Shown here in pieces: positions 13,308 through 62,324 of a stretch of 64,000 nucleotides of DNA. Both the position numbers and the translations under genes were made by a program. Position 1 is the first letter of the stretch; each line of letters begins with the position of its first letter. This DNA is from Terriglobia bacterium (GTDB lineage Bacteria; Acidobacteriota; Terriglobia; 20CM-2-55-15): positions 844,496-908,495 of the forward strand of contig OZ253554.1 of the NCBI GenBank assembly GCA_965262675.1. The letters run 5' to 3'. Below the pieces are notes generated by a model. It made no database searches. It was given only the letters and a program-made list of their open reading frames with translations, and was not told the DNA's origin.

Positions 13308-13322
13308 CCCGGGAGCAACCGA

Positions 13323-13721: not shown

Positions 13722-13724
13722 ATC

Positions 13725-17104: not shown

Positions 17105-17119
17105 ACGGGAGATGTTGCG

Positions 17120-18166: not shown

Positions 18167-18170
18167 GGAG

Positions 18171-20218: not shown

Positions 20219-20495
20219 CGAAAATTCTCCTCTGAAAATATCCCTCAGGCTCATTTTCACGATTCGCGGGATCATGGACGGCTCTCTTGACTGTTCCCGC
20301 GGGGCACAAGCGAACAGCGCCGCGATCCACCGATACGGTTCCGGTCGAGTCCGGCTTCAACCAGACCAGCCGCCCGATTCCGATAATACATCCGTTCGAA
20401 CGCCGCCGGAGATGTCTCCGGCCGGTTCCGGCAATCGCTCCGTATTGTAGTGCGTCAATCTCTTTCGATGGAACCTGCCGGCCGATCTCGTCCGA

Positions 20496-24860: not shown

Positions 24861-24886
24861 GAGTTTCGATTGAAGAGATTGCGGAA

Positions 24887-31334: not shown

Positions 31335-32372
31335 TCAACTCCCGGTGCCAACGATGAACGCGCCCGGGTTGCCGACGCTGGACCACCCGCCCCGGCCGCC
31401 TTCGTAGTTTCTCAACGTAAAGTCGGGCCTTTCGGAGGGGAGCAACTCGCGGCGGTGCACCCGCTCGCCGGAAAAGACCACCTGGGACGAACCGAGCGCT
31501 CCCCCCCAGATGCCGGAAACCGTGCTGTCGCCGGCGCTGACGAAATGGTCGTGCGTGACGTTCAACTCGAAGCCGCTGAAGTCCTTCCGCGTCACGAAGT
31601 TGGCAACGCCAGCGACCGCGTCCGACCCGTAGGTCGCCGCGGCGCCTTCCTTCAGTACCTCGATCCGATCGATGGCGACCGCCGGGATGGCGTTGATGTC
31701 GACGAATCGGCCTCCGACCAGACGCGCCGGCACGTATGTCTGCCGGCGGCCGTTGATCGATACGAGAGTTCGCGACGCGCCGAGTCCGCGCAGGTTGACG
31801 TTTGAAATCGTCTCGGTGAGGGTAGCGGGCTGGTCGGAATTGTACCAACTGTTCCGCTCGCCGATGACTCCGTGGCTGGCGCCGATGTTCCTGAAGAGGT
31901 CGACGAGTTGGGCCGCCCTCTGCTCCTGCAGCGTTTCACGGCCGACGACGGTGACCGCGTGCGGCAGGTTGATGGCGGGCGCCTCGATCGCCGTGCCGGT
32001 CGCCACCACGGAGATCTGCTCGGCGAACGCTCCGATTCTCATTTCGACATCGAGCGCGGTCATCGCCCCCTCGGCCACCAGTACTCTCTCCCGCTCGAGT
32101 AAGGCGAAGCCGGGCAGATTGAAACTCACGGTGTAGGAACCGGCCGGCAACGAGACGGAGTAGGCCCCGTCCCCGCCGGTAAGGACGATGGAGGGCGCCT
32201 CCAGGTTGGGGCCGGCGATTTCGACCGTGACGCCGGGCAGCACGGCGCCGGTGGCGTCGCTGACGGAACCCGCAACACCAGTGTCCTGCGCCAGCGCCGC
32301 TGCGGGCGCCAGCCACAGAGACGCGAAGACACCCGGATAGACCGATCTTTTTATTTTATCGAGTAGCGTCAC
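31335..32372 (-). pseudogene. TonB-dependent receptor truncated after the plug domain (345 aa; barrel missing)
   Basis: Signal peptide, carboxypeptidase-regulatory-like region and plug motif IEVLKEGAAATYGSDAVAGVANF. Stops about 600 aa short of a complete receptor, 70 nt before the BCCT start. Confidence 0.65.
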
Positions 32373-46217: not shown

Positions 46218-46671
46218 GAGAATACCGAACAGGAGGATCACGATGTCCAGAGGAAGAAATACAGAATCCGGGGGCTTCGCAGGGAGCCCGTAGGGCGACC
46301 GAAGCGGCCCCGGATTCAGCGCGACGCGGGAAGGGCCGTTGGTCGGCCCGGCGGCAGGTCACGGTCGTGCTGGAGACTGGGCCGAGGCAACCTGAAGCGA
46401 TTTCACTCTATTCAAGAGCCGGGTTCGTCGAGATCGAAGGCTTTGGAGAGTTCAAGGACCATCCCCTGAGCTATTTCACGGGAAAGCAACTGTGATGCTC
46501 CGGGCCGCCGCCATTCGGGAGGTCCAGCGACCGGTTGATGTCAACGAAAGAAAAGCGTGATATCGGGAGTGCTTCAAGTCAAATTGCGTAACTGGCAACT
46601 CGACACCGATTGTCGCTGGGTACTGTCGGATCATGTCTGACGCTTACGCTTGGACCGCCATCACAGTTTTC

Positions 46672-49600
46672 TCAGGAATTATGCGGATTAAGAACATCCT
46701 CCAGACGCTCGCGTGCCGCTCGGCTGAGCCGGGCGATTCCTAACGCCCGTGCAAGTTCAACTACATCGCCATTGAGGTCTAGTGTCTCGTCAATGTGTTG
46801 CAATTCTTCCGCGCAGATGTGCTCGGGTTTGCGCATCTCCTCGTCTCGGTTAGCATAGCGCGCGGGGACCAACCGATTCTTGACCGTGCCCTTTCGCCAA
46901 AAGAAGAGGCCGACATCCTCGTTCGTGCGCCCCCGCCGGTTCTTGGCGAGGCGCAACACCAGATTGCGAATCTGACGTCCGGCGCGTTGGAAATCGTGAT
47001 GACGGGCAATTCGACGGCTCAGAATATCCTCATGGATCGGCCCTTCGATATCGACAATGTGATCGATCATCGCTTTAAGCCTCCGTTCGTACTCCTCGTC
47101 GTAGAAGCGCGATGGATCGGGCACAAACGCACCACCAGCAAGACGACTTTTGACGTAACGATGGGTTTCCTCCAGAGCGGTCTCGCTCGAAAAGACGAGA
47201 GACGGCTGCTCCTCGGCGGAATTTACCTGGGCGGCCTTTGCGGTCGCACCCTGGAGGCGGTGCCCCTCATTTCCCGCACGTATAGAGTAAGTCCGTTTGA
47301 CGTCGCGTTGCCGCGAGGACGTCTCCTTGGAGCCGTTTTCGTAAGGTAGGACGCCATCGACGTCTATAGGGCTGTGATCTTCAGAAACCGGCTCTTTGCG
47401 CTCCCCGTCGTCTCTTGCAGCTTTGCGGCGCTGTCTATCCTCCTCCAGATGCTCCCTCAACTGGCGATCGAGCTTTTCGAGCGCCCCCACCTTGTTGATC
47501 CACCAGTCCGTTGACCATACGCGGAAGAGGGTCCAACCGAGTCCCTCCAGCACTTCCTGACGGATCTTGTCGCGTTCCCGGGCGAAGGCGGAACTGTGGT
47601 ACATCGCCCCGTCGCATTCGACGCCCGCGAGATAGACCCCGGGCTCGTCTGGATGGACGACTCCGAGATCTATCCGGAACGAACTGACGCCGATCTGCGG
47701 GTGGATCGTCCACCCTTTCTCACGAAAGGACCGTGCAACGGCAATTTCGAACGGCGATTCGAAATCTCCAAGCGAACCGTGAACACCTGCGCCAAGCGCT
47801 ATCGGCCCGCGTTCGGCATATTCAAGAAAATGCTTCAGATCCTTCACCGCTTCCGCGTTCGTGCGGGAAAGGTCGATCTTATCGGGGTGCAGTGTCGCGA
47901 AAACGACCATCTCAGAACGCGCTCGAGTCAATGCAACATTGAGGCGCCTTTCGCCCCCCTCCCGGTTCAAAGGACCGAAATTCATAGACACATGGCCGGA
48001 TTGGTCCGGCCCATACGTAACGCTGAAGAGGATCACGTCGCGTTCGTCGCCCTGAACAGTCTCGAGGTTCTTGACGAATACCGCCTCCTGATGGTTCTCA
48101 TCGAAAGCCCATTCGATGCTCGGATTGGCGGCCCGCGCCCTATCCAACAGATCCTCGATTAGCGACTGCTGTTCTGTATTGAAAGTGACGACACCGATGG
48201 TGGCCTGTTTCACCTCAGGTTCGTCCGAAGTGAGGCGCCGGACGACCTCAGCGACGATCACTTTCGCCTCTCGTTCATTGTGTCGCGCCTTGCCACGGGC
48301 ATAAAACCCGTCGGGCCGGACCAACCGAACGCCGGAATCCGGACGGATCGGCGCCGGGAAGGTGATGAGGCTGTTGTCGTAGTAGCGACTGTTCGAGAAG
48401 GCGATCAAGCTTTCCCGGCGGGAGCGATAGTGGAGATTGAGCGTGCATTCCGGGATGCTGGAGCTTCGCAATTCGTCCAGGATACTCTCCAGATCACCGT
48501 CATAGTCGATGTCACCGTCAGGATCGTCGTCAGCGCGGTTGAAAAAGTTGGTCGGCGGCATCTGCTTCGGATCGCCTGCGACAATCACCTGCATCCCGCG
48601 CGCTATCGAACCCACGGCATCCCAGACCGTGATCTGCGACGCCTCGTCAAAAATCACCATGTCGAACAAGGCTTGTTCCGCCGACAGATATTGCGCGACG
48701 GAAAGCGGCGACATCATCAGACAAGGGGTGAGCTTGGTTACCACATCGGGTGCCTCTTGCATCAGTTGGCGTACCGGCTTATGACGCTTTTTCTTGTTGA
48801 TCTCGTGCCGCAAGACGCCCCATTGGGAACTTTTCTTCACATCATCCTGAACCGGGATCTGGCCGCTCAGTCCGGCTGCGATATAGGCTGCCGTAATCTT
48901 TTGGAAGGATGCGTCGATCTGCCGGAACTTCTCGATCGTATCCATATGTTCGGCGGTCGAGAATGTACGTAGCACCTCGTCTTCGCCAATCACCATAGAC
49001 GACCACCAAGCGCAATACGCGGCCTCAAACGTCTCCAGAATCTCGTCAATGGGAACACGCCCCTTCTCGATCCCGTCTACCAGCGGTGCAAGGTCGAGAT
49101 CCATCGCCTCTGTCCGCCGCTTTCGCCAGGCACACCAGTCATGCAACTCCGCTCGCCGGGCAATGATCGTCTCGGCAGTCTCACACAATGCCTCAAGCGC
49201 CCGGTCTTTCTCCGAAAAAGCCTCGCGCACGACGCGTCCGGCGCGCTCTTCGAAGGCCCGGCTTGCACTCTGCAACGTGTCGAGTGTCTTCAAATACTCC
49301 GCTGCCGCGCGGCCCACAATTGCTTCCGGGGCAAGCAGGTCATTGCCGTCCTGCAGAAGCATCCGCACCTTGCGACGCACCTCCGCTAGCGCCTGCGCAT
49401 CGTCGGCGAGCCATCCGACCGATGTGCGCGCTCGATCGCCCAGATCTCGCAACGCCTGCGCGGCCTGCGGATCGGTCGTGTGCGCCTCCCACTCCTTGAG
49501 CGAGGAAAGTTGCTTGTCGAGGCGATCGATCGCCTCGCCCTCCTCGCGAAGTGAGGTCAGCAACGGGGCGTCGCGCGCAGGATTCGGCTCGCCTCGGGCC

Positions 49601-52600
49601 CCACCTTTGCGCATCGATTTGATGACGGCACGCTGGGCGAATATTTTTTTGGGCCACCAAGTACGTTCCGCCTCTGCCCAGTGCAACGCGACCTCTTGAC
49701 CGTCGGTCGCCCTCCAGGCCATCGGATCATAAGGACAGCTCAACCGAGCCTGCGCCGCAGCATAAGCTTTGAGGCGGTGAACTGCCTCTTCCAGCGCTTC
49801 GATCCGGTCCTGACCGTCTGGCTCCAGCGCGTAGGCGGTCTGTCTACGATATGACTCCGTCAACACGCGCGCGAGATCAGCGAGCGCATCGAGGCGTCTC
49901 ATGGTCTGGTCGGGCAGCGTCAAACCGACGGTCTCACAAAGCGCGCGCGCAGCGTGATCGGCAGCCTTCGCGGCGGCGGAGAGCGCGGCAGCGCGGCCCA
50001 CCAGTTCACCCTCCCACTGCGGTGTCCATCCTGAGCTCGCTACGAGTTGCAAAGGGCTTTCCGTGATCTCGCCCACAGCATGGGCCTGAATCTTCAACAT
50101 TTCGGCCGCCGCACGCATCGCGGCGAGTTGCGCCTCGTCATGCTGATCGGCTTTCGGCCAAGAAAGATTGATCCGCGAGCCCAACTCTTCGTCGCGCACC
50201 TTCACGCCAATCGCGTAGTGGGCGGTTAGACCGTTCCGCCGCCTGCGGTGCATATGATCAATGAATCGATTGAGTTGGTCGCGTAAGATGCGTAGTCGCT
50301 CCGCCTCCTTCTCCCAAACCTCGGCCGTGCGGCTTTTTCCAGTGGACCAAGCGGTTTCGAGTTGATTTAACACGTCCGCCTTTTTGGCCTTGTTGGAATG
50401 GAGTTCCAGACAGAAGCGCCCCAGTCCGATGTCATCGAGACGACGGTAGACGACGTTGAGCGCCGCCGTCTTCTCCGAGACAAAGAGAACCTTCTTTCCC
50501 TTTCCGAGAAAGTGCGCGATCAGATTGCCAATAGTCTGGCTTTTGCCCGTGCCGGGCGGGCCGATGATTATGAAGTCCTTGCCCCTATCCGCCGTCGCGA
50601 CCGCCGCCATCTGGGACGAATCCGCCGGCAGCGGGACAAGCAGTTCGGAAGGCTTATAGTCGCGATCGATCCGATCCGTCTCGACGAAGGCGATCTTGCT
50701 CCCATAGGCCTCGCGCGGGGTATCGATCAGGTGCCGGACAACCGGATTCTCCCGCAGTGCATCCGTCCGATCGATCAGATCCTTCCACATCAGGAACTTC
50801 GCGAAGGAAAAATGGCCGAGCACCACGTCCTCCACGACCTCGAAGCCCGGCGCGTCCTTGACTGCCTTGCGCACCTTTTTCCAGATACCATGGACGTCGA
50901 CCCCACTTTCGTCCTCGGGAAGTGCTCCGTCAATGCCTTTGATATCGATTTCGAAATCCTTACGCAGCATTTCGAGGAGGGTGGTGTTAAAGCGCGGCTC
51001 GTCGTCATGCGCAAGCATCTTGACGCCGCTACGGACCGACTGGCGCTGCAGGGTGACGGGCATCAAGATGAGGGGGGCACGGAAGCGATGGTCTTCCTTT
51101 TCATCCCGCTTCCAGAGGAGGAAGCCGAGGGCGACGTAGAGCGTGTTCGCCCCGCCCTCCTGCAGCGCTGTCCGGGCCTTGCGGTAGATTTCGACAGCGC
51201 GCTTCGAGAGGTCCTCTGGTGGAAGATCGACCAACACTTGACCCCGATTCAGCGCGTCGCGGGCGTACTCCTCTGTGATTAGTTCGCCGGTGCGTTGTTC
51301 ATGGAGATCAACGTCCTGTGCTTGGGAAGTTGCCTGCCGCAAAACCTGGATCGAGATCTTGCTCCCATCTGCAAGTTTGTCTTCGAGTAGCCCTGGATCG
51401 GGGCAGACGATCTTCAGGCTTGCCTTGGTCGATTTGTGATTCAGAAGTGGATTGCGCGCGGAGAGGTCAAGCAGCTTGCGTTGCCAACGCTCCAAACGAC
51501 CGGCCGGAGTCTCCGGCTTCTGTTCCGTGACGTCCTCGTCGAATCGGGGCAACGCCGGCGCCTCCTCCATTGGAAGCTCGACGGCCTCAATCCCCTGGCC
51601 GTCTGGACCATTCGTAGGCGTCTCCCCTTTCAGCCCCAGCGGCAAAATCCGATGCGCACGAGCGCGACGAATGTCGACCGCGACGCTGAACGTTTGGTCG
51701 CGCTCTGGGGCGACCTGCTCCATTGCGCGAGCAATCGCTTTCGAAAAAGGCGGCGCCGGATACGAAGTGGCCAGCGTCGTTTCAATCAGGATGAGTTCCT
51801 GCAATTGATAGCGCTTGCGGAGCGTCTCGGCGTCATCAATCACAATGGTGGTGAGCTCTTCCGGTTGTAGCCAGACGCCGACCATGGCATGGTCCTTCGG
51901 CATCGCGATGATGGGATTGAGGCCCGCTTGCTCCAACACAGAGGCGAACAGCATCGTGGTGTCGAGACATGTTGCAATCTTGCGCTCCCAGATCTGGCTT
52001 GGCAGGCGGATTTTCTGGCCGTCGCGCTCAAAGCTGGCCGGGGGAACAGCATAGACGATCCCGAGATTGGCGATTGCCGTGTAGATAGCTGACGCCATTT
52101 CCCAAATCCGGTGCCGACTGCCGGAGCTATAGCCGTCGAGGCCGTCGGGCTTGCCAGCTTGGCGCAGAAGCTTTGAGGCCTTGTGCAAAATCCGGTCAAC
52201 TGCCGGGTCATTCGGCATCGAAAAAGCTGCCAAAAGCTCCGGCATATAGCCCGAACCACCCCATTCATTGAAAGCGAGAATCTCGACGGGCTTAGTCACC
52301 TCGGTCAGCACCTCACCCCCAGTCTCGACTCGGATCGAGACCGCCCCACGCAGTGAGTCGGAGAGGTCAAGCAGGAAACCGCCATCGAGATCGATATCAC
52401 GATGCCTGACCGAAACAACCCCAGCCGCGGCTATGCGATCGATGCGCCAGATCTTCGGCTTTATGAAGCCCGGATTCGCACTAAGCGTTACCAGAACGTC
52501 GTCGAGACGATTCTCCTCGTCCAGGTTTTCAATTCGGAGATCCCGCAACACGGGATATGCACTTTGGTGGCAGGCGAAATTCAACTTCGCCGCAATTTCA

Positions 52601-52638
52601 CAATGAATTGCGACGGTTCGATCTTTGGCGTCGTCCAT
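46672..52638 (-). CDS. 1988-aa DUF4011 / Upf1-like SF1 helicase (AAA_11/AAA_12) / REase (Vsr/DUF559-like) / DUF3320 protein (Hhe-like architecture)
   Basis: Walker A IIIGPPGTGKSQTIGN, motif VI VALTRARSEMVVF, endonuclease core GVECDGAMYHSSAFARERDKIRQEVLEGLGWTLFRVWSTDWW, and a C-terminal DUF3320-like tail. Confidence 0.85.
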   Translation of the reverse strand: MDDAKDRTVAIHCEIAAKLNFACHQSAYPVLRDLRIENLDEENRLDDVLVTLSANPGFIKPKIWRIDRIAAAGVVSVRHRDIDLDGGFLLDLSDSLRGAVSIRVETGGEVLTEVTKPVEILAFNEWGGSGYMPELLAAFSMPNDPAVDRILHKASKLLRQAGKPDGLDGYSSGSRHRIWEMASAIYTAIANLGIVYAVPPASFERDGQKIRLPSQIWERKIATCLDTTMLFASVLEQAGLNPIIAMPKDHAMVGVWLQPEELTTIVIDDAETLRKRYQLQELILIETTLATSYPAPPFSKAIARAMEQVAPERDQTFSVAVDIRRARAHRILPLGLKGETPTNGPDGQGIEAVELPMEEAPALPRFDEDVTEQKPETPAGRLERWQRKLLDLSARNPLLNHKSTKASLKIVCPDPGLLEDKLADGSKISIQVLRQATSQAQDVDLHEQRTGELITEEYARDALNRGQVLVDLPPEDLSKRAVEIYRKARTALQEGGANTLYVALGFLLWKRDEKEDHRFRAPLILMPVTLQRQSVRSGVKMLAHDDEPRFNTTLLEMLRKDFEIDIKGIDGALPEDESGVDVHGIWKKVRKAVKDAPGFEVVEDVVLGHFSFAKFLMWKDLIDRTDALRENPVVRHLIDTPREAYGSKIAFVETDRIDRDYKPSELLVPLPADSSQMAAVATADRGKDFIIIGPPGTGKSQTIGNLIAHFLGKGKKVLFVSEKTAALNVVYRRLDDIGLGRFCLELHSNKAKKADVLNQLETAWSTGKSRTAEVWEKEAERLRILRDQLNRFIDHMHRRRRNGLTAHYAIGVKVRDEELGSRINLSWPKADQHDEAQLAAMRAAAEMLKIQAHAVGEITESPLQLVASSGWTPQWEGELVGRAAALSAAAKAADHAARALCETVGLTLPDQTMRRLDALADLARVLTESYRRQTAYALEPDGQDRIEALEEAVHRLKAYAAAQARLSCPYDPMAWRATDGQEVALHWAEAERTWWPKKIFAQRAVIKSMRKGGARGEPNPARDAPLLTSLREEGEAIDRLDKQLSSLKEWEAHTTDPQAAQALRDLGDRARTSVGWLADDAQALAEVRRKVRMLLQDGNDLLAPEAIVGRAAAEYLKTLDTLQSASRAFEERAGRVVREAFSEKDRALEALCETAETIIARRAELHDWCAWRKRRTEAMDLDLAPLVDGIEKGRVPIDEILETFEAAYCAWWSSMVIGEDEVLRTFSTAEHMDTIEKFRQIDASFQKITAAYIAAGLSGQIPVQDDVKKSSQWGVLRHEINKKKRHKPVRQLMQEAPDVVTKLTPCLMMSPLSVAQYLSAEQALFDMVIFDEASQITVWDAVGSIARGMQVIVAGDPKQMPPTNFFNRADDDPDGDIDYDGDLESILDELRSSSIPECTLNLHYRSRRESLIAFSNSRYYDNSLITFPAPIRPDSGVRLVRPDGFYARGKARHNEREAKVIVAEVVRRLTSDEPEVKQATIGVVTFNTEQQSLIEDLLDRARAANPSIEWAFDENHQEAVFVKNLETVQGDERDVILFSVTYGPDQSGHVSMNFGPLNREGGERRLNVALTRARSEMVVFATLHPDKIDLSRTNAEAVKDLKHFLEYAERGPIALGAGVHGSLGDFESPFEIAVARSFREKGWTIHPQIGVSSFRIDLGVVHPDEPGVYLAGVECDGAMYHSSAFARERDKIRQEVLEGLGWTLFRVWSTDWWINKVGALEKLDRQLREHLEEDRQRRKAARDDGERKEPVSEDHSPIDVDGVLPYENGSKETSSRQRDVKRTYSIRAGNEGHRLQGATAKAAQVNSAEEQPSLVFSSETALEETHRYVKSRLAGGAFVPDPSRFYDEEYERRLKAMIDHIVDIEGPIHEDILSRRIARHHDFQRAGRQIRNLVLRLAKNRRGRTNEDVGLFFWRKGTVKNRLVPARYANRDEEMRKPEHICAEELQHIDETLDLNGDVVELARALGIARLSRAARERLEDVLNPHNS

Positions 52639-53094
52639 GCTGCCCCCCCTGAAAGTAGATCGTCCATCGTTACGCCGACATTCCCCAAATGACTTACAAA
52701 TTCGGCCAGATGTAGCTAAACGGATCCCGTATCGGAACCAAGAACAACGTCTCGATCGGATGGAGCAAGTTTTCGACTGCTGGACCGCCTGAAACGACCA
52801 TTCAGATTGAGCCGATTCCGTTCCATCCAGAAACCTTTCTCCTTCACACGTCTCCGTTCTGTCGTCCCCTTAGATTGCAACCATGGCCAATGGTCGCAAT
52901 ATGTCGATCCCCCGCAAGATTTTCAGAAACAGATCAGTCTGCACGGCAACCTCAGCAAATTGGAAGGTGACGTATATCACCAATCAATCGGGCGCACGTC
53001 CTGAAGACATATTTAGTTGCCGTACGTTGTAAATCTTCTGACTTCATCCGACAGTACGCAGCAGCAATCGGAGTCGAGTTCCCAGCTAAACACT

Positions 53095-53275
53095 CCGTTG
53101 AAACGCACTCGATCTCCGTGCCCCGTTGCTGGGGGAGTAATGCCGCCGAGATGTTGAGGGTGACGTCTGACTTGCCGCGATCGGTGGACTCCAGTACGGC
53201 AGTCACCACCTTGTCAACCTCGAGGTTGACAAGGCCCCGCTTCTCCAACTGAACGACGCGTGGAAACCTCAACAT
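53095..53275 (-). pseudogene. internal fragment of a paralogous FtsX/MacB-type permease
   Basis: KVVTAVLESTDRGKSDVTLNISAALLPQQRGTEI aligns with KVVTAVLESTHRGTPDFTVTIPAALLAQQRRTQTI of the intact permease 57438..58682. Confidence 0.5.
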
Positions 53276-53469
53276 TGCTCCAACCCGATACCTCGCTCGC
53301 GCGGACCCGCCCTTCCGACGAAAATGCTCCCAAAAACTTGTTTCGCGTATACTCTATTTTTTCGAATGGGACTCCAAAATGGGCGATCCGGAACGTCTCA
53401 TCGGGTTGGCGTTCCAAGGCATTTCGGGCCAATCTGTCGCCCGATGGATGTGTAGAGGGGAGTTGATAC

Positions 53470-54270
53470 ATGCGAAATCGATTGACCGGCGTGATCGTGA
53501 CGGCCGCGGCGGTATTGTTGACCGCCGGCGCCGTTCGCGCCCAGCAACTGGAACGTCCCGAACGCATGTTGGACCGTCCCGACCTGAACGGCATCTGGCA
53601 GGCGCTGAACACCGCCAACTGGAATCTCGAAGGTCATTCGGCGGAAGCGCTCGATGACTTCTGGCAGCTCGGCGCCATCGGCGCGATTCCGGCGGGCCAG
53701 AGCGTCGTCGGTGAAGGCACGATTCCGTACCTGCCCGAAGCGCTCGCTATACGCGATGAAAACCGCGCGGCGTGGCCCGCTGAAGATCCCGAAGCGAAAT
53801 GCTACATGCTGGGAGTTCCACGCGTTACCTACCATGATTTGCCGTTCCAGATTTTCCAGGGCAACGGCGATCTTCTGATGGTCTACCCGTTCGCCGCCGC
53901 GAACAGAGTTATCTACATGAGCGATGACTCGGAACTGCCGATCGATTCGTGGATGGGCAAATCCAACGGAACCTGGGAAGACGATGTTCTGGTCGTGACG
54001 ACGACGGGCTCCAACGGCCAGACGTGGTTGGATCGCGCCGGCAATCATCACAGCAATCAGTTGACGGTCACGGAGCGATTTACGCTTCTCGGGCCGAACC
54101 ACATCTGGTATGAGGCGACGCTTGAGGATCCGCTGACCTTCTCGGAGCCCTGGACCATCGAGATGCCGCTGTATCGTTTGATCGAGGAGAACGCGCAACT
54201 GCTCGAGCACAAGTGTGTACCGTTTGCGGACATGCTTCTCTATAGCGATCTGCTCCTGACGGAGCAATGA
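53470..54270 (+). CDS. secreted protein, paralogue family L (subtype 1, second copy)
   Basis: RPDLNGIWQALNTANWNLE, DPEAKCYMLGVPR, SWMGKSNGTWEDDVLVV, EATLEDP, IEENAQLLEHKCV. Confidence 0.65.
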   Translation: MRNRLTGVIVTAAAVLLTAGAVRAQQLERPERMLDRPDLNGIWQALNTANWNLEGHSAEALDDFWQLGAIGAIPAGQSVVGEGTIPYLPEALAIRDENRAAWPAEDPEAKCYMLGVPRVTYHDLPFQIFQGNGDLLMVYPFAAANRVIYMSDDSELPIDSWMGKSNGTWEDDVLVVTTTGSNGQTWLDRAGNHHSNQLTVTERFTLLGPNHIWYEATLEDPLTFSEPWTIEMPLYRLIEENAQLLEHKCVPFADMLLYSDLLLTEQ

Positions 54271-54332
54271 CGGCGCGCGGAAATGCGGCGTAACGACGAT
54301 GTCTTCAGAATAGACGATCGGGAGCAAGACCA

Positions 54333-54731
54333 ATGCAGAGCAGACTGATGAGTGTTATTGCGAGCGCCGGAGTCCTGATGGCGGCGGCGTTGCCCGCGGC
54401 GGCGCACCATTCCTTTTCCGCCGAGTTCTCCCGGGAGAGGCCGGTCACGCTCGAGGGCGAAGTGGTCATGATGGAGTGGGTGAACCCGCATTCGTGGCTG
54501 CACATCGACGTGCCGCAGGCGGACGGCTCCGTCGAACGCTGGAAGGTTGAAGGCGGGTCACCGTCGGTATTGATGCGCCAAGGATGGAACAGGGATTCGC
54601 TGCCGGCCGGCACGAAGGTCAGAGTCGAAGGTTTCGGGGCGAAGGATGGCGCGTTCCGGGCCCAGTCGCGAGGACTTGAGTTCCCCGATGGCCGACGTCT
54701 GGAGCTTGGCGGCACGGCAAGTCCCGATTAG
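54333..54731 (+). CDS. small secreted His-His protein (132 aa), partner S
   Basis: ...ALPAAA then HHSFSAEFS...MMEWVNPHSWLHIDV... Confidence 0.65.
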   Translation: MQSRLMSVIASAGVLMAAALPAAAHHSFSAEFSRERPVTLEGEVVMMEWVNPHSWLHIDVPQADGSVERWKVEGGSPSVLMRQGWNRDSLPAGTKVRVEGFGAKDGAFRAQSRGLEFPDGRRLELGGTASPD

Positions 54732-54873
54732 CAGCCCGTGGCGAAACCCTGCATGGTCGCGCAGACGGGGTTCTTCGAATACATGGTCTGACACTTTCCA
54801 TCGGCCAGGACACCGCCCAGTGGATACCGTCTCAACACACCTGCGGCCCGGTACCGCAAGGAGCAACAAGATT

Positions 54874-55719
54874 ATGCGCAGCACTGTTCTTGCTATCGCC
54901 GGCCTGATCGCCGTTCCGCTGGCGGGCATGTCGCAACCGGCCGGTTGGAACGATCCCTATCCACCCCATCGCGTGATGGACAACCTCTACTACGTCGGCA
55001 CCACCATGCTGGCCACATTCCTGGTTGCCACGCCGGACGGTCATATCCTGATCAATAGCGACTACGAGACGACAGTACCGGTGATTCGCGACAACATGGC
55101 CGAACTGGGCTTCGATTTCGACGACATCAGGATCGTTCTCGGCAGCCACGCACATGCCGACCATGTGGAGGCGGACGCGCTGATCCAGGAACTGACCGGA
55201 GCGGAAGTCATGGCGGCCCGAGGCGACGTGCCGGCTCTGCGCGAGATTCGTCCAGGCGGCAAGGAGCATCCGATCGACCGCATACTCGACGACGGCGATG
55301 AGGTGACGCTGGGGGGAACGACGCTGACGGCTCACGTGATGCCGGGTCACACCAAGGGCTGTACGAGTTGGGGAATGGAATTGACCGAAGACGGCCAGAC
55401 TTACCAGGCACTGATCGTTTGCAGCCTCAACGGCGGTTTCCTTGAGCTTTTCGACAACCCGGATTACCCCGAAATCGCCGATGACTTCGTGGCGACGTTC
55501 GAAAAGGCGCGGGCGTTACCGATCGATGTCTTTCTCAGTTCCCATGGCGTGTTCTACGGCCTGGACGCCAAGTACGAGCAACTGCTGGCCCGCGCCCCCG
55601 GAGATCCCAACCCGTTTGTCGATCCCGAGGGTTACCAAGCGCACATTGACGAGTACGAGGAGATTTTCCAGACGAGACTCGAGGAGCAGCGAAACGCTGC
55701 CGAGACAACCGACCCGTAA
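54874..55719 (+). CDS. subclass B3-like metallo-beta-lactamase-fold hydrolase (secreted)
   Basis: GSHAHADH zinc motif, later H...D...H ligands; signal peptide MRSTVLAIAGLIAVPLAG chosen as start. Confidence 0.75.
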   Translation: MRSTVLAIAGLIAVPLAGMSQPAGWNDPYPPHRVMDNLYYVGTTMLATFLVATPDGHILINSDYETTVPVIRDNMAELGFDFDDIRIVLGSHAHADHVEADALIQELTGAEVMAARGDVPALREIRPGGKEHPIDRILDDGDEVTLGGTTLTAHVMPGHTKGCTSWGMELTEDGQTYQALIVCSLNGGFLELFDNPDYPEIADDFVATFEKARALPIDVFLSSHGVFYGLDAKYEQLLARAPGDPNPFVDPEGYQAHIDEYEEIFQTRLEEQRNAAETTDP

Positions 55720-55816
55720 GATCTTCGGTCCTGGGTCCTTCACAAACCAAGCGTTCGATTCGAACCTTCCTGAATGGTAAGACGCGAGAAGGCGTTCAGA
55801 TAGCTCATCGGTGCCC

Positions 55817-56095
55817 CTACACTAACTCAATGTTCACGCGGCGCCCGACCATTGCGGCGGCCCGTTGCAGGCTGCCGAGCGTGATGTCGTTGTTCGGATC
55901 GAGCAGCCGGTCCACCTGGGTGCGGCTCGTCTTCAGCAGCGTCGCCATCTTGTTCTTGGAGATGTTCTTCTGCTTCATGGCCTCCGCGAGCTGCCACGCG
56001 ACGACCTCCTTGATCGCCTGCGCCTGCGTTTCCTCGAAGATGCCTTCCTCCTTAAGGAAGGCATCGATGCTCGAACCCATATGCGTCTTGCTCAT
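55817..56095 (-). CDS. XRE-family HTH protein (antitoxin-like)
   Basis: ...ISKNKMATLLKTSRTQVDRLLDPNNDITLGSLQRAAAMVGRRVNIELV. Confidence 0.55.
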   Translation of the reverse strand: MSKTHMGSSIDAFLKEEGIFEETQAQAIKEVVAWQLAEAMKQKNISKNKMATLLKTSRTQVDRLLDPNNDITLGSLQRAAAMVGRRVNIELV

Positions 56096-56150
56096 CGTTT
56101 CGATTGGTTGGCTGAACAGGCTCGCGTGGCTTCTTCAGGAACCCGATGGC

Positions 56151-57200
56151 CTACTGACCGGCCTGCTGTGCTCGCTCGAAACGCGACGTCTCGATGTAAT
56201 TACGGACGGCCGTGTTGCCTTCGTGGCAGGCGTATTCGTAGATCCGGTAGCTGTTGTCGAGCTTCATCGGGTAGGCCGCGGTCCACGAACCCGTCGCCAG
56301 CACTTCGGGGTCCTCCACGGTCATCTGGTATTCGATCGTTTCGTCGTCGGTTCGGGTAAAGCGCTCGACGAAGCGCATGTTTTCTGTCGTCGGCTGCAAG
56401 GGCCGCGGAGAACCGGGGACCCCGGCGCTGGTGGCGCCCGTCTTGCCGGTGAAGTTCGTTGTTTCGACGACAAGCGTGTTGCCTTCCCATCGCCCCCGCG
56501 GCTCGCCCAGCCACTGCCTGATCGACGAATCGAGCGCCGGGCGCGGTTCGGTGGGAATGATGCGGGCCTCGTGGGCCATTTCGATGACAAGCACGACGTA
56601 GCCAGGAGACTGAACGATCTGGATGCCGTTGTTGTAGTTGCGGGTCAACATCGAAACGGGCAGACCGCGCGTGATGCAACGATCCCAGTGGTTGAAGTCC
56701 TCGATGCCGTCGAATACGGTCTGTCCCGGCCGGTAGCTGCTGCGCATGTCGGCTTGCAGCGCCACGCCGGTTTCGGTCAGTCCCGGAAAACGCCCATCCG
56801 GCGGATCGATTATCAGGGACGTCAGCCGCATCGCCTGGCCTGCCGGATCGGCCGCGGGTATCGCTCCTGAAAGGAAACGCGAGTCGCGGGCTTCCACACT
56901 GGCCTGCTCGGCCTCGAATTCCTCATCGGTCAACAATCGGCGCTCGCCGAACTCCTCCGGGCGTTCGAGAGGGACGCCGATCAAATGGGAAAGGGGCCAA
57001 ATGCCCTGAAGGTCGGGCTCGCCCCACGGCGTCATCGGGTGCGTCCAGTCGGCATCGCTCGCGGCGGGTTCCACTGCCGTCTGTGGGTCCGAGCAGCCCG
57101 TCAGGCCTATGCCGATAACAATTCCACCTAAAGCCAGAATCCGTTTGATCACCTTGAGAATCCTCTGCGATTCATGCCGTCGAACGCTGTTACGCGGCAT
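56151..57200 (-). CDS. secreted/lipoprotein, paralogue family L (subtype 2, second copy; no small partner)
   Basis: TPWGEPDLQGIW, IDPPDGRFP, QSPGYVV, GRWEGNTLVVETTNF, YEYACHEGN; possible lipobox LTGCS. Confidence 0.65.
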   Translation of the reverse strand: MPRNSVRRHESQRILKVIKRILALGGIVIGIGLTGCSDPQTAVEPAASDADWTHPMTPWGEPDLQGIWPLSHLIGVPLERPEEFGERRLLTDEEFEAEQASVEARDSRFLSGAIPAADPAGQAMRLTSLIIDPPDGRFPGLTETGVALQADMRSSYRPGQTVFDGIEDFNHWDRCITRGLPVSMLTRNYNNGIQIVQSPGYVVLVIEMAHEARIIPTEPRPALDSSIRQWLGEPRGRWEGNTLVVETTNFTGKTGATSAGVPGSPRPLQPTTENMRFVERFTRTDDETIEYQMTVEDPEVLATGSWTAAYPMKLDNSYRIYEYACHEGNTAVRNYIETSRFERAQQAGQ

Positions 57201-57329
57201 TGCCGTTACGCAACCGATACCGAACTGGCACCAATCCGGCACCAATGGTTACTTGTGCGAAAAACCGGTCGACATCTTCGGTTTTCCGTTCGCCGATGAT
57301 ATCACCATACCTGCGGCAAACGTGCCGTC

Positions 57330-57400
57330 ATAGATCGCGCGGTCGATCGCGCGGTAGATCGTGCGGTCATAGACCGCACCTACACTGGCCTACACTGGGA
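57330..57400. repeat. degenerate REP copy gtgcggtcatagaccgcacctaca with upstream cgcggt-gatcg sub-repeats
   Basis: Same palindromic core as the other REP copies. Confidence 0.6.
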
Positions 57401-57437
57401 GCGGGGGTGACGTCCGAAGGCCGGCAGGGCGAGGCCG

Positions 57438-58682
57438 TCACTCGTATCGAAGGGCGTCGATGGGATCGATACGGGACGCCTTCATCGCGGGATACACGCC
57501 GAACAGCACGCCCACCGAGACCGACACGCTGAAAGCGACCACGACGGAGGTCGTGGTCACAATCGTTGTCCAGTCCGCTGTCCGTGCAATCAGTCCGGCC
57601 AGAATGAACCCGAAACCGATACCGATGACGCCTCCACCGCCCGAGATCAATACCGATTCGGTGATGAACTGCCGGGCGATGTCCAATCGGCGGGCGCCGA
57701 CGGAACGGCGGATGCCGATTTCGCGAGTCCGTTCGAGCACAGTCGCAAGAACGATGTTCATGATACCGATACCCCCGACGAGCAGAGAAATCGCGGCGAT
57801 TGCAACCATCACGTAGGTGAAGATCGTCTGCGTACGCCGTTGCTGGGCCAGCAGCGCCGCCGGGATGGTGACGGTGAAGTCCGGTGTGCCGCGATGTGTG
57901 GACTCCAATACCGCGGTCACCACTTTTGCGATCTCGACGCTGTCGGCGCCCTCGCTCAATTGAAGTTCGATACCGGCAAGCTCGTCTTTCAGGTTCGAGC
58001 CGGGATCGTGGAATCGGTACTCGAAGGTGTTGATCGGGACATAGACGATGTTGTTGATGTCCGGCAGCGAACCGCCTTCGCTCTGGGAACTCTCCATCAA
58101 CTGCTCTTCGAGCACACCGATGACTTCGAGCCAGGTGTCGTCCACCTTGATGAATTCCCCGAGAGCCGGCCGATAACCGAACAGCGCGACTTTCGCGGAT
58201 TCCCCGAGGACACCGACGGCGGCACTCGACCGATTCGCGCGGTCGTCGAAGAAAGCGCCCTCCGCGAAGGCAAGGTTGTGAATCGCGCTGTAAGCGGGCT
58301 CCACTCCATACAGCTCGGGCGGATCTTCGGACGGCTTGGGCAGCAGCGTGGCCGGCCGCATCGTCTTGCGCACCGACAGCGCTTCAATGGCATCGACGTT
58401 GGTCGCCAGGATGCGGGCGTCGCGGTACGTGAGGCCGGGCGAGGACTGGCGGCGCAACTGGAACTCCTGAGAGCTGTCGGCGGCCTGCGAATCGATCAAG
58501 ATGTTTCGCACGCCCAGCAACTCAATGAAACGGAGCGACTCCTCACGTGCCCCGGCGCCAATCGACATCATTCCGATAACCGATCCGACGCCGAAGACAA
58601 TGCCCATCGCGGTCAACAGAGTGCGCGCCTTCTGCGCCGTGAGATTATCGAGGGCCTGGCCAAAGTCCGAGATCACCATCAT
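57438..58682 (-). CDS. FtsX/MacB-type ABC permease (414 aa, no ATPase domain)
   Basis: N-terminal TM, large periplasmic domain, and C-terminal 3-TM FtsX module IRRSVGARRLDIARQFITESVLISGGGGVIGIGFG. Confidence 0.85.
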   Translation of the reverse strand: MMVISDFGQALDNLTAQKARTLLTAMGIVFGVGSVIGMMSIGAGAREESLRFIELLGVRNILIDSQAADSSQEFQLRRQSSPGLTYRDARILATNVDAIEALSVRKTMRPATLLPKPSEDPPELYGVEPAYSAIHNLAFAEGAFFDDRANRSSAAVGVLGESAKVALFGYRPALGEFIKVDDTWLEVIGVLEEQLMESSQSEGGSLPDINNIVYVPINTFEYRFHDPGSNLKDELAGIELQLSEGADSVEIAKVVTAVLESTHRGTPDFTVTIPAALLAQQRRTQTIFTYVMVAIAAISLLVGGIGIMNIVLATVLERTREIGIRRSVGARRLDIARQFITESVLISGGGGVIGIGFGFILAGLIARTADWTTIVTTTSVVVAFSVSVSVGVLFGVYPAMKASRIDPIDALRYE

Positions 58683-59974
58683 CGGGAGAGCGCTCCAAGG
58701 GGGCCATCCGATCGTCGGCCGCCGCCGGTCTCGACCCCGGGCCTGGCGAGAGCGATCGTCACGCCCTCGTCGATGCCCGTGATCACGGCCTGACTCTCGG
58801 TGCGGCGAATCAACTGCACTTCGTCGGTGAGATAGCCCTCAGGCGTTTGCCGGTAGACGTACCACCCTCCCCCGCTTTCGAATAGTGCCTGAGATGGAAT
58901 CCACAACACGTCGTCGAGAGTCTCTACGTTGATCAGGATGTCCGCGCTCATGCCCGGGCGTAAATCCGGCGCGGTTTGGTCGAGAGCAATGCGGCAGTTG
59001 AAAGTGCGATTCCACGCGTTCCCGGACGAGCCGCCGAGCGCACTGATGTGGCCCAGGAACTCCCGCTCCGGCGTCGCCACAGGCCGGACAATCACCTCCT
59101 GCCCCACCTCGAGGTAGGCGCGGTCCGTTTCAGTTATCTGGGCACTGACCTCCCAGCGGCTCATGTCCGGGATGCGCGCTACCACTTGTCCGGGACGCGC
59201 AGTGTCGCCGGGTTGGAAATGTGGCAGTTCCATTCCCGAAAAAATAAAGCTGAGGCCGTTCAGGTTTTCGGCAAGCTGGACGTAGCCCGAAGTTTCGGCG
59301 CGTAGCGTCAGGTCGGCCATCGTGCGGCGCGCCATGTCTGCCTTCGTCGACGCTTCGTTCACCGCGGCACGCCGGACGTCGAGACTCGCGCCGGTCGTCG
59401 CTTCGCGATGCTCCAGGTCCTGAACGGCCTGCGCGTGTCTGTTCTCGGCGCGTTCCAGCGCGATCTCGTTCTGGCGCCCCTGGATGGCCGGCAGGACTTC
59501 ATTCTTTCTAATTTCCAGCCTTGCGATCCGGAGGTCGGCTTCGGCGGTCGCCCCCAGGAGCCGTGCCTGCTCCAACGCCACTCGGGCTTCGGCTTCGGCT
59601 TGCAACAGTTGCTGTTCGGCTTCCGCGAGATCCGCTTCGGCCTCGATAAGGTTGTATTCCTGCTCACCCGCGTCGAATTCGGCGACGATTCCTCCGGCAT
59701 CCACCAGTTCACCGTCGTCCCGCAGGAACGTAATCGGCAATTCGGGGACACCGGCCATCGGTGCGGTCAGGGATTCAGCGCCACCGCCCTGAAGTTCACC
59801 CTTGGCCGGCACGGTAATCGCCACCAATCCGCGCCGTACCGTGGTCGTGGGCATTTCGGCATCGCCCGACTCCGCGGTCGCTTCGATCACGGCTCGAAGC
59901 CCCCGGGACAGCCCTGCTCCAATACCGACAATCGCCGCGGCGAGGGCCATTAACACGATCATCCGTTTGATCAT
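58679..59974 (-). CDS. HlyD-family membrane fusion (periplasmic adaptor) protein
   Basis: Signal anchor, biotinyl-lipoyl-like half-domains around a long coiled coil, and a beta-barrel; 4-nt overlap with the permease. Confidence 0.75.
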   Translation of the reverse strand: MIKRMIVLMALAAAIVGIGAGLSRGLRAVIEATAESGDAEMPTTTVRRGLVAITVPAKGELQGGGAESLTAPMAGVPELPITFLRDDGELVDAGGIVAEFDAGEQEYNLIEAEADLAEAEQQLLQAEAEARVALEQARLLGATAEADLRIARLEIRKNEVLPAIQGRQNEIALERAENRHAQAVQDLEHREATTGASLDVRRAAVNEASTKADMARRTMADLTLRAETSGYVQLAENLNGLSFIFSGMELPHFQPGDTARPGQVVARIPDMSRWEVSAQITETDRAYLEVGQEVIVRPVATPEREFLGHISALGGSSGNAWNRTFNCRIALDQTAPDLRPGMSADILINVETLDDVLWIPSQALFESGGGWYVYRQTPEGYLTDEVQLIRRTESQAVITGIDEGVTIALARPGVETGGGRRSDGPLGALSR

Positions 59975-61239
59975 TCTTCACCTGCGATCGCGGACCCTGT
60001 CTCTACACTGCCCGCAAAAGGATCGATCAGCGTCACCCGCGAGCCCCCATCGATGCCGGCCACCGCAATCTCATCCGGATTGCGCGCGAGCACTTCAACG
60101 TCAACGGCCCGGAAACCATCGCCATCCACCACAAACACCGTCGGCCTGCCGGATCGCGTAAACAGCGCCTGCGCCGGAATCGTCTTTGCGTCAGGGATTC
60201 GTTCGGTCACGATATCCATACTCCCGTTCATGCCCGGCCTCAACCGGGTGTCCACGCTATCGCCGAGGAACGCGAACGCATGAAAGCTCCGGCCACGGGT
60301 GTCGAAAGAAATCTCGGCAAGCGGGGAAATCTGTGTCAGCACGGTCTCGATCGTCAGTTCGGGAAGCGCATCCACGCGCACGATCACCTCATCGCCCACC
60401 CGCATCCGCCCGCGGTCGATCTCTTCGACGGCGGCATCGATCAGCAGAGAGGTCAAATCCGGGATTGCCGCCAGGTTCATTCCACCCGACACCTGGTCCC
60501 CGACGCGAAACGGCTGCGGCTGTCCCCCGCCCAATACCGAGGCCAACGAACTCGAGTTTCTCGAGTAGATGGCAAACCCGGACAGGGGGGCCAGGATCTC
60601 CATCCGCGCCATTCGCGCCTCGATAACATCCACCTCTGCCTGGGCGTCCTGCAACTGCCGGTTCAGAGACGCGATTCTCGACTCACTCGAAACGGCGCGT
60701 TGAGCCACTTCGGCTCCGAGTTGGCGGAGATTCTGCTCTGCGAGTCCCAGATCGATCAGCGCCCGTTCTGCTTCGATGCGCCCGACAAACTCGTTATCCG
60801 CGGTACCGAGTTCAGCGATTTCAACGTTGAGTCTGGCATCGACCAACTCGCGCTCGTCGTGCCCGGCCGAAATGAGAGCTTCGGCAGCGGCCTGCGCCAG
60901 GCTCGCCTCCGCCCGTTCGAGGGCCGCGCGCCGCTGGATCAGATCGCGCTCTGCCGAACTGGAGTCGAAGCGGATCATCGGCTGGCCTTCTTCGACAATC
61001 TCTCCGGTGGGCGCCATCCATGCGATCCTCAGGTCTTGAGCAACAGGCGCGTAGATTGGAACCGATCGCCCGGCCTGGATTTGACCCCGTGTTCGAATGA
61101 CGGCAACGAACTCCCCCTCATCGACGGTGGCCATGGGAAGGCTTGATTCTTCCACCGCCAGAAACGGGACCACGCCAATCCACACGGCGCCGGCGAGCGC
61201 GGCAACGACGACGAGGGCCGCCAACAACTTGAAGCCCAT
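59971..61239 (-). CDS. HlyD-family membrane fusion protein (second paralogue)
   Basis: Same architecture; overlaps its neighbours by 4 nt and 1 nt. Confidence 0.75.
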   Translation of the reverse strand: MGFKLLAALVVVAALAGAVWIGVVPFLAVEESSLPMATVDEGEFVAVIRTRGQIQAGRSVPIYAPVAQDLRIAWMAPTGEIVEEGQPMIRFDSSSAERDLIQRRAALERAEASLAQAAAEALISAGHDERELVDARLNVEIAELGTADNEFVGRIEAERALIDLGLAEQNLRQLGAEVAQRAVSSESRIASLNRQLQDAQAEVDVIEARMARMEILAPLSGFAIYSRNSSSLASVLGGGQPQPFRVGDQVSGGMNLAAIPDLTSLLIDAAVEEIDRGRMRVGDEVIVRVDALPELTIETVLTQISPLAEISFDTRGRSFHAFAFLGDSVDTRLRPGMNGSMDIVTERIPDAKTIPAQALFTRSGRPTVFVVDGDGFRAVDVEVLARNPDEIAVAGIDGGSRVTLIDPFAGSVETGSAIAGEE

Positions 61240-62324
61240 TACGGAACCCCCGCGCCGGACAGAATTTCGACCGAGTGACCGGTCACGTCCGGTTCCTCGA
61301 TTTCCACTGATTCGAATACGACGGCGGTCGAAAGATCGGGCATCAGACGCGGATCCGAATCGACCAGTCTGAAGACCGCTGTAAACGTCTTGATCGAGTT
61401 TCCAAACGTGGCCGACGCGACGGGACTGGCCGAAGCGAATCGGGCGCGCAACGCGAGGTCGGGGTAGGCATCAACGTAGACCACCGCTTCGAGCCCCGGC
61501 TGCAACAGGGCGCCGTCCGGCTCTGCGACAGTGGCACGAACCAGCATCTCCGTGGGATCGAAGATGCTGAGCAGGGAGTTGTTGCGTCTCATCTGATCGC
61601 CTTCCTGCGGACGAATCATTGCGCCATTGCTGTAGCGCGTCGCATGCGCCACCATGCCGCCGATCGCCGCCCGCAAACGGAGCCGCTCCAGGTTGGCTTC
61701 GGCACGCTCGAATGCCGATCTCTGCCGGTCGCGCTGCAACTCCAGGATCCGGAGCGCCGCCGCATCCACGCGTTCGTTCTCGGCGTCGGATCGAGCGAGG
61801 CTTTCAACCTTCAATCGGGCCTTCTCGGCCCGAATCACGTTTTGCTCCGCTTCGATGGCGCTCAGAATCTCGGCCTTGCTCACCTCGAGCAATGCCTTGG
61901 CAAGGTCGGCCTCGGCCTGTTGAACCGCCGACCGCCGGCGCTCGAGATTGGCAATATTGTCGGCTTCCCTCTGGCGCACCTGAAAGCTCAGATCTTCGTA
62001 GCGCGCGGCGCTTTCCCGGGCCAGATCGATCTGTTCGACGCCGGCGAATTCCGCCACGATGTCGCCGGCAACCACTTCACTGCCGTTGGGAATGATTCGG
62101 GTGAGGGTCATTTGGCGGGACGGCCCCGTCAACTGGGGCACCACAACACGAGTCGACCGAACCGCATCGAGGACCCCCGTCAGGCGGATCGTGCGCGCGC
62201 TGGGGGAGTTCGGCGCACCCGCCGACGACATCGAAGCGGCGGGAAGAACTTCGTCGCGCGGGGGCTCGGAGGTCGTACAGGAACACAGAAGTGACACAGC
62301 CACAACAGACAGAACGGACCGCAT
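61239..62324 (-). CDS. HlyD-like periplasmic adaptor lipoprotein (third paralogue)
   Basis: Lipobox LLCSC, coiled coil, C-terminal beta-barrel-like region. Confidence 0.6.
   Translation of the reverse strand: MRSVLSVVAVSLLCSCTTSEPPRDEVLPAASMSSAGAPNSPSARTIRLTGVLDAVRSTRVVVPQLTGPSRQMTLTRIIPNGSEVVAGDIVAEFAGVEQIDLARESAARYEDLSFQVRQREADNIANLERRRSAVQQAEADLAKALLEVSKAEILSAIEAEQNVIRAEKARLKVESLARSDAENERVDAAALRILELQRDRQRSAFERAEANLERLRLRAAIGGMVAHATRYSNGAMIRPQEGDQMRRNNSLLSIFDPTEMLVRATVAEPDGALLQPGLEAVVYVDAYPDLALRARFASASPVASATFGNSIKTFTAVFRLVDSDPRLMPDLSTAVVFESVEIEEPDVTGHSVEILSGAGVP

Follow-up and report, generated by a model that had tools for sequence, protein, structure and literature searches.

An undescribed family of DUF6152-linked gene cassettes in a Terriglobia bacterium and its possible role as a periplasmic metal relay

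ZinT (YodA) is a periplasmic calycin-like zinc chaperone with a His-rich amino terminus that aids the supply of metal in the envelope. CusF and SilF are small periplasmic metallochaperones with an oligonucleotide/oligosaccharide-binding (OB) fold, and CusF holds Cu(I) or Ag(I) at a Met2His(Trp) site inside its barrel. In YcnI, which carries DUF1775, removal of the signal peptide leaves a conserved His as the first residue; the protein is linked genomically to CopC and CopD and binds Cu(II), and it began as a domain of unknown function (DUF) whose genome context indicated metal before biochemistry confirmed it (PMC8424229; PMC12362106). Here we describe a family of gene cassettes represented at positions 53470..57245 of a 64,000-nt stretch of Terriglobia bacterium DNA (contig OZ253554.1; referred to as the window). 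Each cassette encodes a small DUF6152 protein together with one or two larger paralogous proteins, which fall into subtype 1 (sub1) and subtype 2 (sub2). The system is undescribed, the large family being absent from Pfam, NCBIfam, the sequences of the PDB and the literature that we searched.

The cassettes share features with each of these systems. Like YcnI and the CopC-CopD pair, DUF6152 is small and predicted to be extracytoplasmic, with a conserved His predicted at the mature N-terminus, and in related loci its gene is directly followed by two DUF6644 genes whose products weakly match CopD and DUF2214. Unlike YcnI and CopC, however, DUF6152 has a predicted OB fold rather than a cupredoxin-like or CopC fold, its motif is His-His...NPH, and it is always accompanied by one or two calycin-like proteins, which are absent from the Cop and Ycn systems. 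The presence of calycin-like proteins, and the zinc hydrolases that the cassettes accompany (a subclass B3 metallo-beta-lactamase (MBL) and M20 and M28 peptidases), recall ZinT. Like CusF and SilF, DUF6152 would be a small periplasmic OB-fold protein that carries metal; unlike CusF, it has its His-His at the N-terminus, CusCBA genes are missing here, and CusF is not among the structural matches listed for DUF6152.

A preliminary description of this DNA had placed a pair of genes, for sub1 and a small His-His protein, at 53470 and 54333, a secreted MBL-fold gene behind the pair and a large sub2 gene at 56151, and all of these genes are present at those positions (Table 1). It had further treated the sub2 gene (B2) as a solo copy without a small partner, which is not what comparison with related genomes indicates. 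The best matches of the sub1 protein (B1), the small protein and B2 share the same seven loci (L001-L007), in which the cassette gene set is conserved and the position and orientation of sub2 vary around a sub1-DUF6152(-MBL) core. In a contig that is 79% identical to the window (L002), genes for a TonB-dependent receptor, sub1, DUF6152, the B3 MBL and sub2 all lie on one strand, the last of them being a clear B2 orthologue. In a 95%-identical contig (L001), the layout is that of the window with one extra gene, encoding a Gp49/HigB-type toxin, between the helix-turn-helix (HTH) gene and sub2. Relative to the counterparts in L002 and L003, B1 is 79%, B2 73% and the small protein 73-74% identical, with values for B2 alone of 73% (L002), 72% (L003) and 69% (L006). 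In the window sub2 is inverted, and the MBL gene and a toxin-antitoxin remnant separate it from the 53470/54333 pair. Because B2 orthologues co-occur with orthologues of B1, DUF6152 and the MBL in L001-L007, we read 53470..57245 as one cassette interrupted by a toxin-antitoxin remnant, with B2 as the cognate second large subunit of the pair. Note that the HTH gene and sub2, described before as back-to-back, are both on the minus strand and form a tandem, the HTH gene being convergent with the MBL gene. The limits given earlier for sub2 (56151..57200) also shift: the gene is real, its open reading frame (ORF) runs to 57245, and initiation is probably at the GTG at 57152, a start that yields a lipoprotein signal peptide (..GLTGC, lipobox LTGC) and is the one called in L001.

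The family to which these genes belong is large. A profile of the five large paralogues of the window matched 18,474 representatives of 50%-identity clusters at E<=1e-3 and 10,480 at E<=1e-10; a search with B1 returned more than 7000 proteins, all annotated "hypothetical" and without any Pfam domain, and a search with DUF6152 returned more than 2500. To count neighbours and gene orders we used a genome scan that returned 80 loci, 74 of which were evaluable for gene order. The loci come from Acidobacteriota (Bryobacterales, Vicinamibacterales, Terriglobia), Gemmatimonadota, Acidimicrobiia, Gammaproteobacteria (Pseudohongiella, Porticoccaceae, Halieaceae, Steroidobacteraceae, Rariloculaceae) and others. 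In the evaluable loci sub1 had sub2 beside it in 62 of 74, DUF6152 in 54 and both in 46, and the commonest order was sub1-sub2-DUF6152, the order of cassette A of the window. Thus, the core of the family is sub1, sub2 and DUF6152. Sub1 and sub2 also occur fused in single chains of about 515 amino acids (P0247, P0251 and P0255; L093 7001..8548; L094 7001..8554), with the DUF6152 gene lying 3' of the fusion gene after a gap of 4 nt in L093 and 83 nt in L094. Because they are also found as one chain, the two large proteins probably act together, as a probable heterodimer. (The L093 fusion gene is flanked by genes for an M20 peptidase and an MBL, and that of L094 is followed by genes for a MacB-type permease, a DUF4097 protein and a dienelactone hydrolase.)

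Other arrangements of the module are also found. A large protein of the cassette C type paired with DUF6152, without sub2, is kept in eight metagenome loci, in two of which a sulfatase gene comes next. The module is amplified locally to an extreme degree in one metagenome contig (L088, SMVA01108563.1), where a span of 10 kb accommodates four to five large-protein/DUF6152 pairs, distributed over the two strands. In a plasmid collection the only matches were distant ones from Novosphingobium (about 28% identity), whose plasmids carry a set of two DUF6644 genes, two large-protein genes and a DUF6152 gene.

All five large paralogues claimed for the window were located by tblastn (starts 12522, 16250, 17120, 53470 and 56151), together with three DUF6152 genes (starts 13323, 18171 and 54333). 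The 18171 protein scores 109.7 bits as DUF6152 (Pfam cutoff 27), and the 13323 copy was found by tblastn and phmmer. In cassette C the intergenic gaps are 15 nt and then 3 nt before the sulfatase gene. The earlier figure of about 50% identity within subtypes holds for sub1 (52.5% between B1 and A1) and for the small proteins (49%) but not for sub2 (36.9% between B2 and A2); across subtypes the large paralogues share 27-33% identity (E 1e-13 to 1e-19). Window proteins are much nearer to orthologues in other genomes than to their in-genome paralogues, to which they are only 37-52% identical. For example, the best matches of A1 (67%), A2 (57%) and S1 (70%) all lie in one cassette (L052) of a Ca. 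Rariloculaceae genome. Because the best matches of the components fall together in single loci of other organisms, the window cassettes are co-inherited sets, and they are old paralogues of each other. This agrees with the ancient paralogy proposed before.

Nor are the cassettes recent duplicates, because the nucleotide likeness between them is confined to short stretches of 66-83% identity; a recent duplication or duplication in the assembly, which near-identity would have signalled, was rejected given how low and patchy this likeness is. The ratio of nonsynonymous to synonymous substitution rates (dN/dS) against L001 was 0.18 for B1, 0.08 for DUF6152 and 0.16 for the MBL, and B2 differs from its L001 counterpart at 26 nucleotides but only four amino acids. 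The genes are not ORF artefacts, because homologues are very numerous and dN/dS lies at 0.08-0.18; they are real, intact and under purifying selection. With thousands of homologues known, synteny kept across phyla and these values of dN/dS and between-cassette identity, the idea of chance ORFs or assembly duplication can be regarded as already refuted.

The DUF6152 proteins share a motif at their predicted mature end. In 77 of 78 DUF6152 ORFs a His-His follows immediately after a signal peptide with a small last residue and a signal-peptidase-type site, and an NPH motif, with an invariant third His, lies 24-25 residues past it. Mature DUF6152 is therefore predicted to begin with His-His after cleavage of the signal peptide at the putative site. 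In the predicted structure the protein forms a barrel of five strands, with a helix inserted between the third and the fourth, as defines the OB fold, and a Foldseek comparison with the PDB gave generic OB-fold matches only (E>=2e-3). DUF6152 was the only Pfam match of the small proteins, which matched no CopC or cupredoxin-like fold or family. Our literature searches returned no paper naming DUF6152 or DUF6644, and none pairing "histidine brace" with OB-fold or HemJ with CopD.

The large proteins carry a PDLxGxW motif near the N-terminus, in an N-terminal region of about 90 residues that is longer in sub2, and a conserved, probably disulfide-bonded Cys pair (Cys111-Cys249 in B1). Both subtypes also have in common a set of conserved polar positions (Gln, Arg, Glu-Arg, Tyr and Asp). 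Their core is predicted to be a calycin/fatty-acid-binding-protein (FABP)-like barrel, and comparison of the predicted models places FABPs, retinol-, bile-acid- and bilirubin-binding proteins and nitrobindin as the nearest folds. The polar residues of the barrel, together with the Cys pair, suggest in these models a pocket for a specific ligand. Compared with the calycin superfamily (FABP, lipocalin, nitrobindin, Rv0813/Rv2717c), sub1 and sub2 have no sequence-family match, are larger, have the extra PDLxGxW region and the conserved Cys pair, are predicted to be secreted and are present as paired paralogues. The five large paralogues of the window had no match in Pfam or NCBIfam, and lipocalin, FABP or nitrobindin models of these databases did not match the large proteins; among 103 members of the large family there was no Pfam match at E<=1. 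Profiles of both cassette families had no significant match in a sequence search of the PDB.

The enzyme gene of the 53470 cassette encodes a protein (54874..55719) that scores 256.8 bits on the NCBIfam subclass B3 model NF033105 (cutoff 240). Its translation shows SHAHADH, PGHTKG and SSHG, which, as read from the translation rather than from an alignment to standard numbering, fit the zinc-ligand motif HxHxDH and the downstream His residues. Thus, like the subclass B3 MBLs FEZ, BJP and CAU, the window enzyme passes the B3 model and has HxHxDH, but it belongs to no allele family of the named B3 enzymes, with all scores far under the cutoffs. The MBL gene comes after DUF6152 in L001, L002, L004, L006 and L093, and the B3 MBL is a conserved member of the 53470-type cassette. 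To our knowledge, a B3 MBL embedded in a sub1/DUF6152/sub2 cassette has not been described, and the way in which periplasmic MBLs acquire zinc is, as far as we know, still an open question. Such embedding in several genomes could mean that the cassette is a dedicated accessory of the MBL, for example for zinc loading or beta-lactam capture. This is very unlikely, given that an MBL gene is carried by only 4 of the 80 scan loci (further cases, from other look-ups, being L001, L002, L093, L097 and L098), whereas cassettes A and C of the window and the large majority elsewhere are without one.

To identify recurrent neighbours, we grouped every remaining ORF of the 80 loci into clusters, with no family chosen in advance. 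The most frequent were genes for pyrroloquinoline quinone (PQQ)-dependent dehydrogenases of differing subfamilies (22 of 80 loci, 10 of them within 1 kb of a cassette gene), for a lipoprotein of about 150 residues with a single C-terminal CxxCH and sub-threshold cytochrome c' matches (19 loci, 7 within 1 kb), for a tandem pair of DUF6644 membrane proteins (16 loci, 13 within 1 kb) and for TonB-dependent receptor-like proteins (16 loci, 6 within 1 kb). Less frequent were a cytochrome-c-domain protein of 420-490 residues (9 loci, 4 within 1 kb) and a HupE_UreJ_2 membrane protein (6 loci, 4 within 1 kb). Of the 80 loci, 44 contain one or more of the redox or metal partner families. Among 27 DUF6644 members, sub-threshold hidden Markov model (HMM) matches were to DUF2214 (17), CopD (5) and UPF0093 (4), three families that we take to form one CopD-like clan; no match to CopC, PCuAC or CopD exceeded the threshold. 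The DUF6644 pair of L072 comes after DUF6152 with intergenic gaps of 4 nt. (The full operon, L072 5999..12064, is tightly packed and runs PQQ dehydrogenase, sub1, sub2, DUF6152, DUF6644, DUF6644, with the cytochrome c'-like lipoprotein gene alongside, and similar extended operons are found in L013, L014, L017, L022 and L029.) Next to cassettes on contigs with Pfam annotation there were also genes for M20 and M28 peptidases, more MBLs, a dienelactone hydrolase and a MacB-type permease, and the Novosphingobium humi cassette adjoins genes for a TetR regulator and beta-oxidation. No DUF6644, HupE-type or cytochrome partner lies within this window, in which the cassettes are joined by the B3 MBL and a sulfatase as their enzymes.

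The 420-490-residue protein, which has an N-terminal cytochrome c motif, occurs in L018, L029, L030, L032, L036 (3492..4958), L043, L063, L079 and L080. PDB sequence searches with profiles of DUF6644, the cytochrome c'-like lipoprotein and the 488-residue cytochrome-domain protein gave nothing significant. (The HH..HxH..M spacing of the 488-residue protein recalls PHM-type copper monooxygenases, a resemblance that is not used as evidence here; neither Pfam nor the PDB gave support for anything other than the cytochrome c domain.) In the window itself, a minus-strand ORF at 31335..32372 aligns with no more than a portion of TonB-dependent receptors (E 1e-21 to 1e-24 with the receptor clusters of related loci) and is probably a receptor gene fragment.

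Because a His-His end, ligand-type barrels and recurrent coupling to receptors, membrane proteins, cytochromes and metalloenzymes occur together, we propose that the module binds a transition metal, or a complex of metal and organic ligand, in the periplasm and relays it, a reading to which we give a probability of roughly 40%. Cleavage of the signal peptide would leave His-His at the amino terminus of DUF6152, near the third invariant His of the NPH motif, and this N-terminal site would bind a transition-metal ion, Cu(II) or Zn(II). The barrels of a sub1/sub2 heterodimer would offer a ligand pocket and work with DUF6152, the two passing metal or a metal-ligand complex between TonB-dependent outer-membrane receptors and periplasmic metalloenzymes. 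In many genomes the relay might also reach a c-type cytochrome and, in the inner membrane, proteins of the CopD-like or HupE/UreJ-like kind. The metalloenzymes served would be the B3 MBL and the sulfatase in the window, and PQQ dehydrogenases and M20 or M28 peptidases elsewhere. (Lanthanide handling, raised by the PQQ dehydrogenases, was judged unlikely, the invariant ligands being His rather than carboxylates and the PQQ subfamilies differing.)

Several observations weigh against a metal relay. Beyond the Cys pair the large proteins are poor in conserved His, Met and Cys, which is atypical for metallochaperones. The CopD-like link consists of sub-threshold HMM matches only, the window has no membrane or cytochrome partner, and a DUF6644, cytochrome c'-like or HupE gene is present in only 26 of the 80 loci. 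Moreover, genes for PQQ dehydrogenases and TonB receptors are abundant in these taxa, such that some adjacency by chance is expected. Finally, the partner enzymes are mixed (Zn, Ca/PQQ and non-metal dienelactone hydrolases), a mixture that suits a substrate carrier equally well. In that case the barrel pair would bind an organic substrate (a lipid-like, aromatic, sulfated or lactam compound) that enters by a TonB receptor or porin and present it to the periplasmic catabolic enzyme of the adjoining gene, with DUF6152 as an adaptor whose His motif is structural or pH-sensing. The nearest folds are indeed ligand-binding calycins, Arg, Tyr, Gln and Glu are conserved in both subtypes, and many paralogous cassettes occur per genome, each by a different enzyme (MBL, sulfatase, PQQ dehydrogenase, M20 peptidase, dienelactone hydrolase or short-chain dehydrogenase/reductase); the TetR and beta-oxidation genes beside the N. 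humi cassette also fit. A carrier leaves unexplained, however, both the invariant N-terminal His-His/NPH of DUF6152, the one component that is almost always there, and the close genomic link with DUF6644 membrane proteins and with a cytochrome of the c type, and we regard it as possible but doubtful.

Alternatively, the module might be a heteromeric periplasmic redox metalloenzyme, a novel kind of oxygenase or oxidase, in which DUF6152 would supply a copper centre of the histidine-brace type, the barrel pair the substrate pocket, and a PQQ dehydrogenase the electrons, by way of the cytochrome c'-like lipoprotein and the DUF6644 membrane proteins. The N-terminal His motif, the six extended operons described above and the 44 loci with a redox or metal partner family are consistent with such an enzyme. 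We nevertheless consider it unlikely, given that the window cassettes and most loci are without an electron-transfer partner, that the type of PQQ dehydrogenase varies by locus and that an OB-fold histidine brace has no known precedent, including in the literature searched. A broader formulation, which we also hold to be improbable, makes DUF6152 a new OB-fold class of histidine-brace-like copper protein that forms, with a sub1/sub2 barrel heterodimer, either a new periplasmic copper-delivery route to CopD-like membrane proteins or a new heteromeric copper oxygenase fed with electrons by PQQ dehydrogenases via the cytochrome c'-like lipoprotein. Were the metal relay correct, it would be a new route of copper or zinc supply for envelope enzymes; a redox enzyme would extend the histidine-brace catalysts by a new kind. 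The large family numbers at least 18,000 clusters (50% identity) from major phyla of soil and sea, and its definition as a module of three parts, one of them a partner with an invariant His-His at the N-terminus, makes many "hypothetical proteins" a testable system. A smaller gain concerns the annotation of the window, where 53470..57245 is to be read as one conserved cassette and not as a pair plus a stray gene.

Table 1. Features of the 53470..57245 region and the other cassettes of the window
Feature	Coordinates	Strand	Remarks
sub1 (B1), predicted secreted large paralogue, 266 aa	53470..54270	+	
DUF6152 small protein, 132 aa	54333..54731	+	Pfam PF19649, 113.5 bits vs cutoff 27
Predicted secreted subclass B3 metallo-beta-lactamase-type enzyme, 281 aa	start ~54874, end 55719	+	
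HigA/XRE-type HTH antitoxin gene, 92 aa	55817..56095	-	weak HTH_37/HTH_26 matches
sub2 (B2), lipoprotein-type large paralogue, 333 aa	56151..57152 (probable start)	-	longest ORF to 57245 (364 aa)
MacB/FtsX-type permease relic	53114..53227	-	tblastn with MacB-type protein
Repeated extragenic (REP)-like element	57345..57384	not assigned	recurs elsewhere in window
MacB-type permease gene	57438..58682		source of the permease-relic comparison
Cassette A	16250..18614	+	sub1 16250..17104 (A1), sub2 17120..18166 (A2), DUF6152 18171..18614 (S1)
Cassette C	12522..15095	+	divergent large paralogue 12522..13307, DUF6152 13323..13721, sulfatase 13725..15095

The antitoxin gene between the MBL and sub2 genes is an insertion within the cassette that stands outside the system. 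In L001 (10335..10966) the corresponding gene lies downstream of the Gp49/HigB-like toxin gene, which the window lacks, a difference of 748 bp; no toxin gene adjoins the antitoxin gene in the window, so that no HigBA-type module is present and the antitoxin is orphaned. Because the antitoxin gene is identical to that of L001 at 278 of 279 nt while its flanks are about 94% identical, a recent exchange of the toxin-antitoxin locus is suggested.

The cassette had been placed in rearrangement-prone DNA, and a strain-variable boundary does exist, at 53298; the cassette itself is conserved between strains and lies outside the variable island. Collinearity with L001 covers 53298..56099 and 56087..61571 of the window at 93-94% identity and ends upstream of 53298, where L001 has IS21/rve transposase genes and a HigB module and the window has a helicase gene (46672..52638; 1988 aa, DUF4011/SF1 helicase/REase_MTES_1575/DUF3320). 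Because collinearity starts at 53298, the cassette sits on the conserved side of this junction. (A 52-nt inverted repeat of 83% identity, at 46589..46640 and 53037..53088, flanks the helicase gene and may mark the ends of an inserted island.) The permease fragment and REP copy reported near the cassette were both recovered. The relic corresponds to residues 248-285 of the MacB-type protein encoded at 57438..58682, with 63% amino-acid and 77% nucleotide identity (tblastn), and the REP-like element has copies at 15141-15179, at 20497-20524 and, several times, in 6685-7333 (84-100% identical). These elements measure about 27-40 nt, and at least six copies are grouped within the intergenic region 6685..7333. 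A promoter and terminator scan of 53000..57600 gave no signal exceeding shuffled background, and inspection by eye of the sequence upstream of 53470 and of 16250 revealed no obvious palindrome of the Fur or Zur kind.

Convergent with cassette A lies a minus-strand gene (18767..20275) for a 502-residue protein without a Pfam match. The protein has a coiled-coil-like segment at its N-terminus, ends in an aromatic residue and looks like an outer-membrane barrel. Further along are a gene for a secreted 523-residue ankyrin-repeat protein (20895..22466) and, after it, genes for a PSCyt/PSD (DUF1592/1588/1587/1585/1595) protein and a DUF1552 protein (22494..26197). Together with the sulfatase genes, a gene content of this kind is common in the genomes of sponge-associated or marine symbionts.

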